Shown here: in pieces, positions 1-64,000 of the stretch
Numbering within the stretch: position 1 is the stretch's first letter
Layout: each line of letters begins with the position of its first letter
Notes under the pieces: generated by a model
Database searches by the model: none
Told to the model about the DNA's origin: nothing
The model's input: only the letters and a program-made list of their open reading frames with translations
DNA from: Paramecium tetraurelia
Lineage: Eukaryota
Length of the DNA: 64,000 bases
Direction: 5' to 3'
Assembly (NCBI GenBank): GCA_000165425.1
Contig: CT868001.1
Span: forward strand, 186,001-250,000
Translations under genes and position numbers: made by a program

Positions 1-3000
1 ATACAACCAGCCAAGGTTGAACTGAGGGTGCAATTAGGTGCAAAATCACTGCAACGTTCATGAGTGGTAAATGTTTATGGTGCTTTACTGCACAATCTCG
101 TATAACAAGCTGAATTAATACTATCCCATTTACATTCCTAACCTGTTGAACTGTATCTGCATTAATCTTCGATTTTATACTCTTCACAATCAGCTCTATT
201 TTTGCATCCATAAGCCGAAAGGACTCCTGGTGCTATTTCAGTGACACCCACAGTACATTTGTCTTAAACTTAGGTGTATTTATTTAACGGAAGTTCTGAA
301 CAAGCCTTATGTGTTTAATATTTATTTGGATCAGCTGATTCGCATGAAAGGGTTTCACAGAATTCATTTTCAGGGTTATCGGTGTTCCAATGGCAATATA
401 AACCAGATGAATCAATAACACACTGCTCTTTGTGATGGTAATCCTTGCATGCTTATAAATTCATGCATCCACTTGGATATGATATTGATTAATCATTAGG
501 ATCTACAACAAAATTGACAGTGCATCTTTCAAATTTATTTTATTTTTTGGGATCCTAAATATTGTTTAACTCATAACATTCGTCGTGAGAATCATATTTT
601 TCAGTTTTTTCTATCGTTTTGCATTCAAAAAGAGCACATTTTTTCAAAGTTGGATTCCAGAAGCAGAGTCGATTTTAATTATCAACAACGCATTGTAACT
701 CTGATACGTAAGAATCACAAGAGTTTCTAGATATACAGCCTCCCGCTTAAGCTACAGTGCATGTTGACATATATGATTCACATTAGGCATCGCTTGTTAA
801 AGTATCATCAGAAGAGTAGCAAGTTTTCTTTATGCAGATATTTTATTTCACATCCAACATACATGGCCCTTCGATAAGTGATCTTAAACATTAGTTGGAA
901 GGATAATTTAAACAATTGCTCTTCATTTCTACACATCCATTGTTTGAAGCATTCACAGTGCATGCATTCTTCCATTTTACACATGTTTCATGTGTAAATG
1001 GTCCAACTGCATTCTAACAAGTTTTGAGAGTACAACCTGAAGTTCCTTAATTTGTACATGCCTCATTGATTTTACTGCACTTGTCAAAAGTATAAACTGT
1101 ATCTTTTCCAAGAAAAATCTATTCACAGGTCACTCCTTTAGAGGATTAACATTTAGCATCTGCATCATTTTAAGCAGACTGGATACATAATTCATTCTCA
1201 CTTCTATAGCAATCAGAAACTCTAGTCTCATATCCTCCACATTACTTTCTAGCCACACATTCAGTTCCTGCTCGATTAACACTACAAAAAGTGCTAAAGC
1301 CTTAGCAATCTTCATAGGTTAATCCTGTTCCTTTTTTGTATGAGCAATTCTTGTCTGCTTCTATTAAGGTTGTAATACCAACACACTCACTTGTAGTGCC
1401 AACTTACCAAATGCAATTACTCTATTCTGACTTTACACATAAGTTCTCCTCCTTGTAAGTACCACAACTAGTTTAAATTAAGATACATTTTGTCTTATCC
1501 TTGCTCACAGTACATGTTTCATCAAATTAATGACAAATTTGCTCTGTAAGGTTTACACCCGTCTTTTCATCACAAGATTTATTGACACACGGCACTTTAC
1601 CAACTCCACCTAGGGGATATTTGCAAAACTCTCTATTTTTCTTACAATCTGCATCATTTTCATTTGACCAATTGCTACAGGGTGTAAATTACTTATAGCA
1701 CGATAACCCATTTGTGGCACAAGAACGGTCTGTGCTAGCATTATAGCAATCCTGTACTGAATATTAAGGACAACGATCTTTTTCGGGAACACAACCAGTC
1801 AACGCATTGTTAACTGAGCAACTAAGTTTATTAGCTTTTAATTTTTAGCAATGGGTTAATGAAGATATCGGTGGTCCTCCAGTTTTTCCAGTTTAAGTGA
1901 TATAATCGTAACATGTTTTCAAAATACATCCTGTTTTACCATCATTAGCCTTGCAATAGAAAGCGACATCTTCACAAGTTTAAGTTGAATAATTTATCAA
2001 CACTATTCTTGAACAATCAACTTTATCCTAATCCCAACACCTTTTACCGTTCCATACACACATTGACCCATCCAGATTCTTAAAACATTATTCAGGGAAA
2101 AGATAGTTGTAACAATTCTGCTGTTTATCTATGCAACCTTTTCCACTTACCCTTGCAATTACCGTGCATGTTTCACTGTATTCCTGACAAGCAGCAAATG
2201 AATTATACTAAATAGAAGCCACATCCCCACACTTCTTCAGATCACAACTATATATTCCAGTTGTTTAATTTTACCTTATAACACATTCATTGCCATTAGA
2301 GTCAATATTACACTGTTCAGCTGGCACATATTATGAACAGCTTGATTTAAATGAAATGCAAGCAGTTCCATCTTCATTAACTGTACAAGAGTTATATGAT
2401 GTCTGATAGCAATTTTAATGATTGTAATTTAAAGAGTATATCTTTAAATTTAATGCGCTGCATGACTTTAATACGCATGCATCTCCCGTCCATAAACAAT
2501 CCCCATCTGAATAGAGACTCTTCTCTCTACAATTATCCTTTGTTTTCAGTTGGGAACAAGTATCAGGTTTCTTCATACATCCCAACCCTAGATCATTCAA
2601 GGTACAGCAACCTATGCCATCTGGCTTAGGACAATTCGATGAATTCAACCTGTATTGGTTGCAACTTTATGCTGTCTTATAATTGGCTCTATCAATACTA
2701 AACAGAGTGGAAACACAATTCCTTACTAAGCACTTGGAGTTGCCTTCATCCCAAACACAATCAAAACTATTTTGAATTTCGCAAGTTTCCTAAAGAGCTC
2801 TTTGGCTGCACTCTGGCAAAACCCAACATCCTCTTTTTTCATTGTTTACATAACAGCCTTTCATGTAATCCTGGCAGGCTATATTTGAGTCCCTGGTTAT
2901 AGGTGCAGTATAGCAAGACTTATCTTAACATTTATTATTTTTCCAAGCACACTCTTTTGTATTTTTGCCAGTAGAATTTAGACCTATAGATTGCCTTAAT

Positions 3001-4763
3001 CTACACCCTTCCTCCAACTCTATCATTTCACATTTCAAGGGAAGTGACATACAACCTTTACCAGTTTTCGACAACGTACAACTACTTAAATAAGCATTGC
3101 AATCTTCATGTGTTTTGATCTCTTATGATGCACTCTGGCAAGTTTTTGGTATGCATTTATTTCTCCATGAGCAAGTTCTACCATAAAAATCCAGTTGTCC
3201 TTTGCATGTATCTTATTGGTAGAAATTCTCACAAATTCTGTCTTCACATCCAGTGCCTGATTAATTCACTTTGCATTTTGACCAAAAACTCTAACATAAT
3301 TCTTAAGTATTGATTGTCGTTGGTGCTTTATTACATTACTTAGTAATGCATTTATCAGTTTGCTCATACCATTAGCAATCTGATCCATTAATATCCTTCA
3401 CGCAAGCAATTGCTATACTGACTTTAGAGCAAGAATCATTTTGAATGCAACCACCTCCACTTCTAGTAATACAATGATTATCAGGAAGATATCTCTCACA
3501 ATCTTCATTTGTTTTCAATGTGTCTGGAGCGTTTTTACAAGTTTTAGTTTGACATCCGTATCCATAGTCAGTGGTGCATTAGAACAGGAATTTCTCACAC
3601 TATTCATGTGTAGTCAACTTAGTTGATGCATTTTCACAGACCTTTTCAACACAAGAATCTTCCCACATACAATCCTTGCCTTCTGCACTCTTAGTTGTGT
3701 TACATTCTTATTGTGTTGCAATGGCACTGCATCCAGTATTCAATTTACATCCAATTCCTTCATTAGTTACACACTCACTTTTGAAGGATTAACATTACTT
3801 ATCTGTCTGATAATCTAATGGAGCCTAACTGCACTCATGAATTACACATTGACTAAAGGTGCTTACCCAGAAACAAGACTTTCCATTTGTATCTTCCTTG
3901 TTTTGACAGTCACTTTGGTTTTTTAAATCTGTGCAATATATGATTTTTTGGCATCCTCCACCACTTTTTGCTGTGCAGCTCTACATGAATTATCTACATC
4001 CATTGTAATCATAACTTAGTGGAGCATCTTCACAAGAAACTTCTCTGCATATGTTATTTGACCATGCGCATTTAACTTAGGATGACGTCAGTTTACATTA
4101 ATCTTCAAAGGTATAATCTCCACATTCTGCTGACAAATCTACACACTGAGAGTTATTATTCACAGTGCACTTAGCCAACTAACTATTACAAGCATCATGA
4201 CTTGTAGATTATAGCTTAGAAATTTCTGAGCAGCTGGCGAGTTCCTTACATCCCAATTAAGGATCCCATGTACATTATTGGGCGCGAATGTTTTTTTGCT
4301 TGCAAGCATCAACAGTATTATATTCAGTGCATTCCCCAATCTAAATACACTAAGTTAGATCTGATGTGCACATTGATGATATTGCATTGCATTCTGCATG
4401 TGATTTGGACACATACGCAGAGCACCCAGTAAAGAACTAGCACTACGAGCCCTCCCATACACAAGGATATTATTTTAAACACCCATCGCACATTTGCTAC
4501 TTGTTCTAACAGTTTGTACAAATGAAGGCTTTTTAACAATCTTGTATTGAAGCGTATTGAGAGCAAAAAGGCTTACCCTCTATAACGGGATTCTATGTGG
4601 TTTAAGTTGAAATCACACAGGTATTATTCTTCCATTCACAGTATTGGAGGGGAAATTTAGAGCAGTCTTGCTCTGATTTTAAGTTGACACACTAGCATGT
4701 CCCTTCATCACCATGAACAACAAGTAAAATTGTTAACAATATGAACACATGTAAATTGTTCAT
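1..4763 (-). CDS. Paramecium surface-antigen-like cysteine-periodic protein; 3' end runs out of the window
   Basis: Code 6 gives MNNLHVFILLTILLVVHGDEGTCQC (signal peptide) then ~70-aa Cys-periodic repeats (C.W....C....C..AP....TH..C......CT....GC). The start codon and the codons at the window edge are in the same frame. Confidence 0.9.
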
Positions 4764-5744
4764 CGTATATAAATTTATGTCTTACGAAAAAAAAGATTTG
4801 GAATTTATATAAAATTATTCTATATTAGGAATACCAATAATTTAGAGTTTGTTTATCAATTTTTGTTTCTAATAAATATGTTCGATATCTATTATACACA
4901 CTTGATTTAAAGAGCTTAACTGAATAATTATTTATTCTTATAATTATTTTTGCTCTTTTATAATTTGTACACGCTTTACATGCTTGTATATATTACAAAT
5001 ATATATCTATTCACTCAAATAATACAATCATAGTAGAAACTCTGACCTTAAATATAATTAAGAAAGTAATAGAAATCAAATAAATATTATTAAAAAATAT
5101 TCTGTTTCACAATATTACGATTAATAATTAAAAAAAGGCTATAAACGTATGCTTATAAGCTAATTCATCTCAATTTACCTTTGGATGCTGAAGGGATCTC
5201 AATTTAAACAGTCGAAGAAATGACACCATTCATAGTAATTATTTAATTATAAACAAATATAATAAATTTTATTATCAAACTTTTTAATTACGATTCGGAT
5301 AAAAAAAATTCATTTAAATTTCTACTTGACTTTTTTATTATAGATCTCCATTCACTTATTTAATCATAGTATATCAAAAAGTTAACTTCTATAACTAATA
5401 AAGCAATAATACTAAGAAGAACAACTCAGTAAGTTTTGAATTATAACGATAACATCCATATAATTTAGACGTTTCTGATAATAACGATAGAAACACTTAA
5501 ATAATCAAGCTTATCCCAAAAAAGAAATAAATATTTTAAATACTAATTTATACAATTACCGAAATTTATATTAAATTAATTATATACTTATATGATTTTT
5601 TGATTTTCTTATTCCAGAAAGTCTTCAATTCCTTTAAGTGATGTCAAAGCGTATGAATTATAAATTCTTAATTAATTAAAGTGTTATACTCTCCTTTTTA
5701 TATACTTATGCTTCGTCTTTATTATAATTAAGATTTTAATTAAC

Positions 5745-21892: not shown

Positions 21893-23776
<1,884 letters not shown>

Positions 23777-60458: not shown

Positions 60459-61480
60459 ATGAACTCATAAAACGACCAAGAAAAGTAGGGCTAAGATGAA
60501 CAAGGATTGGGAGAAGTGTTTGTACCAGCTCAGGTTGTGAATAACTTTAATCAAATGGTTGCTGATCCTCAACCTGTATTTCCTCTATTGATAATAATTA
60601 TAGTTCCCATCTGATAGGTCAGCTAAGCCTACTTAAGAGAATAACCTTCAGAATTAAGCTCCTTTGGTATGTAGATGGATATATGTAGTTAACTGATAAG
60701 TAGCAAGCGTAACCATTAATCAAGAAGCTTGATCCTGGTTCTGAAGAAATAAAAAAGATTCCCAAAGCAAGAAATGGATCTGCTCATCATAGTTAAGATG
60801 ATGTCTCAGTTAAAAGTTCAGGAGGAGCCAAATCTCCTCATTAATGTACCATTTTGCTATAATTAATCAGAAGCCCAATAGAAACGCATTAAAAGAATGA
60901 ACAGCAGAGTCAAGAGTCGACATTCTCAATAAAAACAACAATCAGATTTCTCAAAAAGTATAATGAAAATCACAGAAAACACAATCTTCTCAATAATCAT
61001 GGCAATCGTCACTATTTATGCTTTATTTGGAGATGATATTCGAATTTTATCAGTAGATAAGTAGGGAGATGATGTATTCTTTATCCTAACCGTGATATGC
61101 ATGATTGCATTTATTATCGAAATTACACTTACAAGTATCGCTAAACCAGACTACATTCTGAATGTAAATATAAAACAAATTTTAGTTTTATTTTATCTTA
61201 GATTTAATATCAACCTTAACGATGATATTAGATTTAGGTTGGATAACAGATACTTGGTATTCTGGAGATTTAACAAGTGCATCTTAAATTAAATCTATTG
61301 GTACTGCATCCAGAGCAGCAAGAAAAGCAGCAAGAGTTATTAGAGTTATAAGACTTGTGAGATTGGTTAAACTATACAAACATGCTCGCTAGTAAATGGA
61401 AAGAGAGTAGTAAAGAAAATTACTTTAAGATTTATTAAGATAAGCATAATAAAGTAAGAGTTCAGATTAATAATAATAAC

Positions 61481-61524
<44 letters not shown>

Positions 61525-63684
61525 TAATAACAATAACAATAACAATAATAGTAAAATTCATAAATATAATAAATTATACCTTAAAATGATGAATCCAGAA
61601 ATAATTCTCAAAATGAAATTGAAGTTGCCAAGACACCAGATAGAAGCTCTACTTCTTAAATAAGAACCTCTTAAACTTCATCTTAACCAGAAAACCAAAT
61701 AAAGGAATCTATTGTAGGAGCTTAATTATCAGATCTTGTTATGAGAAGAGTTATTACTATTATTTTAGCCATTCTAATAAGTATTCCTGTTCTTTCCTTA
61801 GATACTTATTAAGAAACAATTAGCAGTTATGATTCCGGAATTTACAGAATCTATTAATTTAAAGATAATCCCGAAATAATGAAATCTCTTTTGTATTAAT
61901 ATGCTCAATTCCATGTAGGAGAAATTTACCCAATTTATAGTGTTGATGTTAATTTAAAAGGAAATGGCAGTACCGATCTTGATGAATGGAATTACAATAC
62001 TAATCCAGAAATCTTTGAAGTTCCTGCATATGAAACTAAAGACTAATATAGATTTTCTGATTTACAATATTATGTTAAATCTGAAGGATCAGATCTACAG
62101 ACATATGCTGCAGCTGATTTGGTTACCTATAATCAAACTAATGCTATTTTGTCAATATTTTAAACCGTCTTTGTATGCATTGTCTTAGCTGTTTCAGCTT
62201 TGATGTTCAATAAAGATGTATCTGATTTAGTGATAGATCCAATAGAAGCAATGATGTAGAAAATAGAAATGATAGCAGCAAATCCACTTGAAGCAGTAAA
62301 TATAGAAGAATAAGAAGATTTAATAATGGAAGAGTTGGAGAAATCTCAGGATGTGGAAAAATTAAAATAGAAAGAGATAGAGAAGCATATGGAAACCTAT
62401 GTCCTCTAAAGATTAATAATGAAAGTAGGTGCTTTGTTAGCTGTTGGATTTGGTGAAGCAGGTTCTGAAATTATAGCTGAAAACATTAAAAAGGGTGGCA
62501 GTGTAGATCCCATGATTCCTGGTAAGAAGATTTTGGCAATCTTTGGATTTTGCGATATTAGAAATTTCACTGATGTAATATAAACTATTAACAATATAGG
62601 CAACTGAAGTATTATAATAAGGAGTAATGGTTTTTGTAAATGAAATTGCTGAGATTGTTCATTCAACAGTTGATTCTATGAGTGGATCTGCTAATAAAAA
62701 TATTGGTGATGCTTTCTTGCTCGTTTGGAAGTATTCACCCAATGATTATCATCCTGATCCTGACAATCCTAGAAACCTGAAATTAAAAACAGAAAAATAC
62801 ATTAAGTAAAAGGGAGACATGGCTGTGATGGCATTTCTCAAGATTATAACAGCAATCTCTATCTCCAAAAAGTTGGAGAAGTATAAGAAACATGAGGGAC
62901 TTAATGCTAGAATGAAAGACTATTCTGTGAAAATGGGTTTTGGTTTACACATGGGCTGGGGAATTGAAGGAGCTATTGGTTCTGGATTTAAAATTGATGC
63001 TTCATATCTTAGTCCAAATGTTAATATGGCATCAAGATTAGAGGCAGCAACAAAGCAATTTGGAGCTCTTATTCTCGTTAGTGGTATTCTAAAGTAATAT
63101 TTGACTGATGAATGTTAAAAACAGATGAGAATGATTGATATTGTTACTGTGAAAGGAAGTATTGTTCCTTTAGGTATTATATCATATTATTTTAAGAACT
63201 GCATACAGTGGATATGTCTATTAAAAATTTGCAAGCTAAAATCAAGTCTCTAAGGGATAAATTTGATGTTTCCTCGATGACTTAAAAAGAATCAAAGAAA
63301 TTTAGAGTCGTGAATAGATTTAAGAGAGATTAACAGATGAAATAGGTGATGAACAATTAAACTAATATTACTGATCTCTTTGAAAAGGATGACGAATTGT
63401 CAGCTGCTAGAGAACCATACACTTAAGTACAATATTCATTATGATTTTATTATAGTAATTTTATGAGACTTGGAAATAGGGATTTGATTAATACATTAAA
63501 GGAAATTGGGGAGAAGCATAATCAATATTCTAGAAAACCTTAGTAAATCAAATAATTAATAGTTTAGATTATGATACCTGAACATAAGGATGGGCCGTCA
63601 AATACTCTTTTAGAGGTTATTCATTCTTGTGGTGGAAAAGCTCCCAAAGATTGGAAAGGTTTTAGAGAGCTTACAGAAAAATGA
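60459..63684 (+). CDS. Adenylyl cyclase with N-terminal voltage-gated-channel-like TM domain
   Basis: TIYALFGDDIRI, S4-like RAARKAARVIRVIRLVRLVKLYK (61311-61380), LAVGFGEAG, GFCDIRNFTD, NKNIGDAFL, GFGLHMGWGIEGAIGSGFKIDASYLSPNVNMASRLE; ends WKGFRELTEK*. Confidence 0.96.
61468..61554 (+). repeat. (TAA/CAA)n microsatellite encoding Gln29 within the adenylyl cyclase
   Basis: 29 consecutive in-frame codons: 23 TAA, 5 CAA, 1 TAG. Confidence 0.92.
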
Positions 63685-63742
63685 TCAACAAATCTTTATT
63701 TGTCTTCAAAATTTATTAATTTAATTAAATAAAAATAATATC

Positions 63743-63749
63743 AAAAAAA
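63743..63749 (-). terminator. RNA polymerase III terminator (T7)
   Basis: Seven T on the minus strand immediately 3' of the tRNA discriminator base. Confidence 0.8.
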
Positions 63750-63821
63750 GCGGACCGAAAGGGGTCGAACCTTCACTTCCAAATTAGGAGCTTGGCGTAT
63801 TACCAGCAATACTGCAGTCCG
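63750..63821 (-). tRNA. tRNA-like gene, anticodon CCT (nominally Arg) with a non-canonical body
   Basis: CGGACTG-CA-GTAT-TGCTGGTA-ATAC-G-CCAAG-CTCCTAA-TTTGG-AAGT-GAAGG-TTCGACC-CCTTT-CGGTCCG-C. All four stems pair (some G-U); B-box GGTTCGA intact. Confidence 0.85.
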
Positions 63822-64000
63822 TATTTAGAAATATTAAAGGCAGAGATGATTGTATACTAAATGATGATGCAAAATTAAATATCAATTTATGTGATAAAAG
63901 GACATTTGATATATTTCAACTTCATCATCAGATCCAATTAATATGAATTGTTTGAAAGAAAGCTGCATGTTAGACATAAAAAATCTGGAGCCATTCAATT

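Follow-up and report, generated by a model that had tools for sequence, protein, structure and literature searches.

A tRNA-Arg(CCU) Gene in Paramecium with an Intact Cloverleaf and without Either Base of the U8-A14 Pair

Introduction

Few bases of tRNAs are conserved as strongly as U8 and A14, whose tertiary pair is regarded as an invariable element of the core except in mitochondria, tRNA-Sec, and tRNA-Pyl. A genomic C8 is familiar from one archaeon, Methanopyrus kandleri, whose tRNA genes with C8 keep A14, and in which C8 is edited to U8 by CDAT8. Two further systems work without the pair. In the crystal structures of mouse and human tRNA-Sec, the D stem has 6 bp closed by a 4-nt loop and there is no U8-A14 (PMC3101227); the contacts between the D arm and the variable arm are likewise absent (PMC3101227; review PMC7609411). 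The tRNA-Pyl of Desulfitobacterium hafniense is a working tRNA with G8, in which U8-A14 is abolished and other contacts compensate (PMC7609411).

Here, we describe a tRNA gene with anticodon CCU, hereafter the CCU gene, found in a window of Paramecium DNA, by which we mean the whole 64-kb stretch that was analyzed. Our literature searches, which included searches with stretches of the sequence, returned nothing on a Paramecium tRNA-Arg(CCU), on its copy number or on an unusual core; a study of tRNA genes and codon usage in Paramecium (Salim et al. 2008) lay outside their scope. The portions of PMC10553269, PMC3341644, and PMC10384029 that were available contain nothing on this gene. The gene is probably present in existing annotations, and its altered core seems not to be in print within the literature searched.

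Results

The CCU Gene and Its Sequence Elements

The window is ciliate nuclear DNA, with a GC content of 0.25-0.36 per 4 kb and with long frames that stay open only under a code in which TAA and TAG mean Gln. On its minus strand, at 63750-63821, the sequence contains a tRNA gene of 72 nt with the anticodon CCU. ARAGORN, run on the 64-kb window, reported a single tRNA, Arg (cct), at exactly these positions, and the only Rfam match in the window at the gathering score was RF00005 (46.9 bits against a cut-off of 29 bits, E 7.2e-07), which spans model positions 1-71 of 71. The features of the locus, in positions of the window and with the evidence for each in brackets, are as follows.

63750..63821, minus strand: tRNA gene of 72 nt, 7/4/5/5 cloverleaf, 4-nt variable loop, C73 at 63750 (ARAGORN, Rfam, base numbering, pair count)
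63743..63749, minus strand: run of seven T directly past the discriminator, interpreted as a terminator for RNA polymerase III (sequence; rarity of T7 runs)
63786..63788, minus strand: anticodon C34 C35 U36 in the loop CUCCUAA (ARAGORN, Rfam, base numbering)
63814..63814, minus strand: C8, where nearly all tRNAs have U8 (base numbering; T in 17/17 comparator Arg(CCU) genes)
63808..63808, minus strand: U14, where nearly all tRNAs have A14, able to pair with A21 (base numbering; A in 17/17 comparators)
63797..63812, minus strand: D arm, positions 10-25, which can be drawn with a 4-bp stem and an 8-nt loop, or with 5-6 bp by way of U14-A21 and G15-U20 (energy model)
63803..63814, minus strand: A-box region, positions 8-19, off the presumed consensus at 8, 11, and 14, with G10, G15, G18, and G19 kept (sequence)
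63761..63771, minus strand: B-box, positions 52-62, GGTTCGACCCC, close to the presumed consensus (sequence, Rfam, base numbering)
63687..63880, no strand: 194-nt spacer that carries the tRNA; a second contig has 153 other letters there (contig alignment)

The A-box and B-box sequences used to judge 63803-63814 and 63761-63771 are those that we take to be the consensus. Each of the 21 helix pairs is a standard one, three being G-U, and no non-standard pair was flagged by Rfam cmscan. In tRNA numbering, the gene starts with the pair C1-G72, followed by C8, A9, a D stem of G10-U13 with A22-C25, a D loop of U14, G15, C16, U17, G18, G19, U20, and A21, and then G26. Its 3' half holds a 4-nt variable loop, AAGU, that puts U48 at its end, a T-loop of UUCGACC, and the discriminator C73. 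The original prediction, made from the same DNA, had stated that all stems pair, that the B-box and a T7 terminator are intact, and that the gene carries C8, U14, G15, U48, C1-G72, and C73; every one of these statements was confirmed, the T7 run lying directly past C73. Runs of seven or more T number 44 over both strands of the window, or about 1 per 2.9 kb per strand, and the run at position 74 is therefore taken to be a terminator and not a chance occurrence. A shift of register that would regain U8 was rejected, as the base before C1 is an A that faces C73 and no alternative acceptor stem is available. The locus is thus a real tRNA-Arg(CCU) gene that has an intact cloverleaf and lacks both bases of the U8-A14 pair.

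The D Arm and the Tertiary Core

We compared the gene with about 24 positions that we take to be conserved or semi-conserved in tRNAs (U8, R9, G10, Y11, A14, R15, G18, G19, A21, R24, Y25, R26, Y32, U33, R37, Y48, G53, U54, U55, C56, R57, A58, Y60, and C61), the bases of the gene itself being read from the sequence. Only positions 8 and 14 deviate, and these are the two partners of one tertiary pair. The bases of the D-loop and T-loop that lock the elbow (G18, G19, U54, U55, C56, and A58) are all present, and the anticodon loop CUCCUAA has C32, U33, A37, and A38 in place. Moreover, the U14 of the gene is newly able to form a Watson-Crick pair with A21. Hits from random decay should be scattered, whereas here both fall in a single tertiary pair, and the loss of U8-A14 looks coordinated.

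The 6-bp D arm with a 4-nt loop that had been proposed originally can indeed be drawn, as G10-C25, U11-A24, A12-U23, U13-A22, U14-A21, and G15-U20 around the loop CUGG. In an energy model of the whole cloverleaf, the form with a 6-bp D stem reaches -16.3 kcal/mol and that with a 4-bp stem -14.6 kcal/mol, a difference of 1.7 kcal/mol in favor of the longer stem. When the bare sequence is folded to minimum free energy, a cloverleaf is not obtained (-19.9 kcal/mol); we gave this result no weight, since non-cloverleaf folds of minimum energy are common for unmodified tRNA sequences.

Like the D. hafniense tRNA-Pyl, the CCU gene has a base other than U at position 8 and therefore no U8-A14; that tRNA, in contrast, is bacterial and served by a dedicated synthetase, has only one linker base, and is without G18, G19, and the T-loop motif (PMC7609411). 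The likeness of the CCU gene to tRNA-Sec (RF01852) consists of a D arm able to form 6 bp with a 4-nt loop and of the missing U8-A14. The earlier comparison with tRNA-Sec thus stands for the D arm and fails for the rest of the molecule: tRNA-Sec has acceptor and T stems of 9/4 or 8/5 bp, a long variable arm, and the anticodon UCA, whereas the CCU gene has 7/5 bp, a 4-nt variable loop, and CCU. Membership in tRNA-Sec was accordingly rejected, the 13-bp acceptor and T domain, the long variable arm, and UCA all being absent and the Rfam assignment being to the general tRNA family. With the tRNA genes of M. kandleri, the CCU gene shares a genomic C8 in an otherwise intact gene. In M. kandleri, however, A14 is kept and editing restores the pair, while the U14 of the CCU gene would not pair with an edited U8.

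Comparison with Other Arg(CCU) Genes

Comparators were collected with the pattern TGGTAA-N9-CTCCTAA-N12/13-GGTTCGA, which the CCU gene itself fits. The pattern yielded 1 locus in viral contigs and 37 in metagenome contigs, and its CTYCTAA version yielded 7 loci in GTDB genomes. No relative of the CCU gene was found among these viral, metagenome, and GTDB loci, which is weak evidence because ciliate DNA is probably rare in such collections. The best identity to any retrieved tRNA was 50/72 bases, 20 of them imposed by the pattern. Among the metagenome contigs, 17 distinct eukaryote-type Arg(CCU) genes followed by a T-run were used for comparison; for none of them is a ciliate origin established.

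The CCU gene and 17/17 comparators have the anticodon loop CUCCUAA in common, in agreement with its original description as a normal Arg(CCU) loop. With eukaryotic cytosolic tRNA-Arg(CCU), the gene also shares the 7/5/5 arms with a 4-bp D stem, G18, G19, U20, and A21, GGTTCGA at the start of the T-loop, a T-run on the 3' side, and a minority Arg codon. In other positions the gene departs from the comparators. By alignment, all 17 have G1, T8, and A14, where the CCU gene has C1-G72 and C8/U14, and their discriminator is G in 12, A in 4, T in 1, and C in none, against the non-purine C73 of the CCU gene. The D loop of the CCU gene has 8 nt and its variable loop 4 nt, where the comparators have 7 and 5. 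U20, which had been counted among the oddities, is present as stated and was struck from the list, because 17 high-scoring eukaryote-type Arg(CCU) genes carry it; the pattern required U20, and the comparators therefore show only that this base is compatible with good Arg(CCU) genes.

The scores of the gene are low as well. The 13 of the 17 comparators with Rfam scores range from 58.4 to 74 bits, all above the 46.9 bits of the CCU gene. Under a covariance model built from the 17 genes, a training set not shown to be ciliate, the training genes score 86.1-97.6 bits and the CCU gene 31.2 bits, so that an isotype-type score of the sort suggested in the original prediction is not high for Arg. In the same search, 18 tRNAs outside the training set, including bacterial and phage Arg tRNAs and tRNA-Met, exceed the 31.2 bits of the CCU gene. 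By these alignments and scores, only the anticodon loop groups the CCU gene with Arg(CCU), and its body is an outlier.

Several of the retrieved loci deserve mention in their own right. L002 (at 385-457) and L012, on metagenome contigs of 72.7 and 35.5 kb with 25% GC, hold a tRNA resembling Arg(CCU) whose anticodon loop has 8 nt and for which ARAGORN gives the four-base anticodon 'ccta'; the Rfam score is 43.6 bits for L002, and the same gene occurs in two metagenomes. On a 2.5-kb metagenome contig (L037), a GOLLD RNA on the minus strand at 62-521 (195.6 bits) overlaps a tRNA-Arg(CCU) at 386-456. About 370 nt of a 1-kb metagenome contig (L028, 86-457) hold three tRNAs, one of which is a tRNA-Sec (74.2 bits) and another a tRNA-Arg(CCU) of the eukaryote type.

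The Meaning of AGG

A crude count over all frames of at least 200 codons in the window gave 418 AGA and 135 AGG, AGG thus making up about one quarter of AGR; this ratio is rough, as many of the counted frames are non-genic. Fifteen AGG codons were listed in five open reading frames supported by Pfam, and 7 of these lie inside alignments to solved homologues. Three of the 7 stand at an invariant Arg: in KFKT-R-SG of an arginyl-tRNA synthetase (ArgRS; against human ArgRS), in AQG-R-L of an ACAD11-like protein, and in T/L-R-E of an EF1A-like GTPase. The remaining codons fall at Lys (two), at Ala (one), and in a gap (one). The alignment thereby upholds the original observation that AGG encodes the conserved Arg of the ArgRS motif KTRSG, and the three invariant positions together sustain the claim that there is no wholesale reassignment.

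By these alignments, AGG is Arg in this nucleus. Reassignment is therefore disfavored, and charging of the CCU tRNA with another amino acid, one of the alternatives listed in the original prediction, becomes unlikely, since such a tRNA would be harmful. ArgRS recognizes its tRNAs mainly by C35 and U36, and, given that the CCU gene has both bases, ArgRS is the most likely synthetase for it. As in yeast, tRNA-Arg(UCU) may also read AGG, so the CCU gene may be dispensable.

The ArgRS exon that supplied one of the AGG codons lies in the window at 22138-23649 on the plus strand; it is of the cytoplasmic type, covers the catalytic and DALR domains, and matches human ArgRS with E 1.4e-138. Its occurrence in the same 64 kb as an odd tRNA-Arg gene is probably a coincidence.

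Locus, Neighbors, and Sequencing Runs

The tRNA sits in its 194-nt spacer past the stop codon of an ion-channel-type cyclase gene, whose cyclase domain occupies 62516-63277. A second contig of the same organism, found in the runs X2 and X15, matches the window at 63603-63686 and 63881-64000 and carries, between these two stretches, 153 letters unrelated to the 194-nt spacer. It differs from the window at 2 of 84 nt at the end of the cyclase gene and at 12 of 120 nt in the downstream block, and its depth is below that of the main contig (21 and 100, respectively, in one run, 58 and 81 in the other). We read the second contig as a paralogous locus without the CCU tRNA.

All runs were available as contigs, in which tRNA ends, CCA, and editing are invisible, and none came from a library of tRNA or small RNA. 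X19 (biofilm RNA) and X20 (RNA of organism B), both with small shares, have contigs that match the downstream block, AT-rich spacer or the conserved exon of the cyclase gene but not the tRNA, and they are uninformative on expression and on relatives alike. X15, which we guessed to be an RNA run, shows flat cover like that of DNA and hence gives no evidence of transcription.

Two other regions of the window may be recorded here. The cyclase gene belongs to a region at 61162-63684 (plus strand) that begins with an ion-channel-like part with a long poly-Gln tract and continues with a class III cyclase domain, and its last exon is matched, at 18-24 differences, by at least 4 more contigs from this organism, which makes it a member of a multigene family. 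At 3-5027 (minus strand), a large cysteine-rich frame of 1675 residues with 13 Paramecium_SA repeats (E 6.6e-132), of the surface-antigen type, runs off the start of the window; these repeats mark the organism as a Paramecium.

Copy Number and Constraint

In both same-organism runs, the depth over the tRNA adds up to no more than that of one contig (100.4 in X2 and 81 in X15). No second copy at least 80% alike was placed on the tRNA in the contigs of X2 and X15; contigs cannot prove absence, and the sensitivity of the aligner was such that 36-nt pieces with 5-6 differences were placed. These observations weakly suggest that the genome has no other copy of the sequence. An extant parent less than 80% alike would imply at least 15 substitutions between it and the CCU gene.

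In simulations of 20000 trials each, all 21 pairs survived 15 random substitutions in 27 trials and 20 substitutions in 5-8 trials, and all helices survived 4 substitutions in 2522 trials. The gene has a GC content of 0.53, and the parts of the spacer that flank it have 0.11 and 0.22. None of the usual marks of a pseudogene (broken helices, truncation, a lost terminator or a lost B-box) was seen. An old neutral pseudogene was therefore rejected on the substitution simulation and the GC contrast with the flanks, and long neutral decay is unlikely when it is also considered that a single contig per run covers the gene and that only 2 of about 24 positions, forming one pair, are off. The original argument that stems so well kept speak against random decay is thus supported; a young lesion is possible, given the outcome with 4 substitutions.

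Discussion

What has to be explained is a tRNA gene with an intact cloverleaf and terminator, whose body is an outlier among the Arg(CCU) genes compared, in a nucleus in which AGG means Arg. It is more likely that the gene works than that it is dead. We favor the reading that the gene, a nuclear one in single copy, works and encodes a tRNA-Arg(CCU) of unusual structure that reads AGG, and we hold the chances of this reading to be about even. RNA polymerase III would transcribe the gene from the internal B-box and a weakened A-box and would stop at the T7 run, and the transcript would then be trimmed and given CCA. ArgRS would charge it mainly by way of C35 and U36, and the charged tRNA would read the minority Arg codon AGG. 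Within the fold, U14-A21 and G15-U20 may lengthen the D stem to 5-6 bp and thereby replace the lost contact between positions 8 and 14, as in tRNA-Sec. The more specific proposal, that of a cytosolic elongator tRNA-Arg for AGG that lacks U8-A14, rests its core on a D stem of 5-6 bp, and is charged by ArgRS in spite of C1-G72 and C73, is put forward tentatively and is perhaps rather doubtful in its entirety. Several points count against a working gene: none of the 17 comparators is without U8 or A14 and none has C73, the scores of 46.9 and 31.2 bits are low, the A-box is degraded at three positions, and the paralogous locus is without this tRNA.

The same points can be read as the traces of recent damage. 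The gene might be the sole Arg(CCU) gene, with a body that was already unusual, which became dispensable through tRNA-Arg(UCU) and is now a young pseudogene or poorly functional, recent changes of U8 to C and of A14 to U having destabilized the fold. The deviating bases are indeed those likeliest to disable a tRNA, the Rfam score lies 12-27 bits under those of the comparators, and the A-box is weak at 8, 11, and 14; the paralogous locus has already lost this tRNA or never had it, and a young pseudogene can look perfect, as the 2522 of 20000 trials with 4 substitutions indicate. However, a double change within one tertiary pair by which U14 gains A21 looks coordinated, and the T-loop, G18, G19, U33, A37, the terminator, and all helices have escaped damage. 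C1-G72, C73, the 4-nt variable loop, and the divergent stems are moreover left unexplained by recent damage; they must predate it and must have been functional. We consider a freshly crippled singleton unlikely, though it is the foremost alternative to a working gene.

A function other than the decoding of Arg codons in the cytosol, such as import into mitochondria, use by another synthetase, a regulatory or mimic RNA or a TFIIIC-binding site, would be in keeping with C1-G72 with C73 and an altered core unlike those of the 17 comparator Arg tRNAs, and with a body that bacterial Arg tRNAs surpass in likeness to eukaryote-type Arg(CCU); a non-translational role is compatible with a structure that is kept while its core is not canonical. 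Against such a function stands an anticodon loop that matches CUCCUAA of Arg(CCU) exactly, and with AGG being Arg at invariant positions another amino acid would do harm. The gene lacks G3-U70, a long variable arm, and G-1, and we know of no identity set of another synthetase that fits it; for a TFIIIC site, a B-box alone would suffice and 21 intact pairs would be unneeded. These roles together appear improbable. Still more so, to the point of being very improbable, is an edited tRNA, in which the genomic C8 would be deaminated to U8 after transcription and the canonical core restored in part. A genomic C8 in an otherwise well-kept tRNA invites this idea, but U14 still cannot form the canonical pair with U8, so that editing alone would leave the core unrestored, and to our knowledge no enzyme for C8-to-U8 editing has been described in eukaryotes.

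If the CCU gene works, it would be a natural experiment on what the ribosome, EF1A, RNase P and Z, the CCA enzyme, and ArgRS require of the tRNA core. It would raise the questions of whether a lengthened D stem can stand in for the lost pair and of how far a eukaryotic ArgRS tolerates C73, and it would advise caution in annotation, as such genes may be filtered out as pseudogenes. If it is instead a dying singleton, it would show the loss of a rare-codon tRNA under the cover of a wobble-reading isoacceptor, an ordinary event that would nevertheless be useful for models of codon use in Paramecium.
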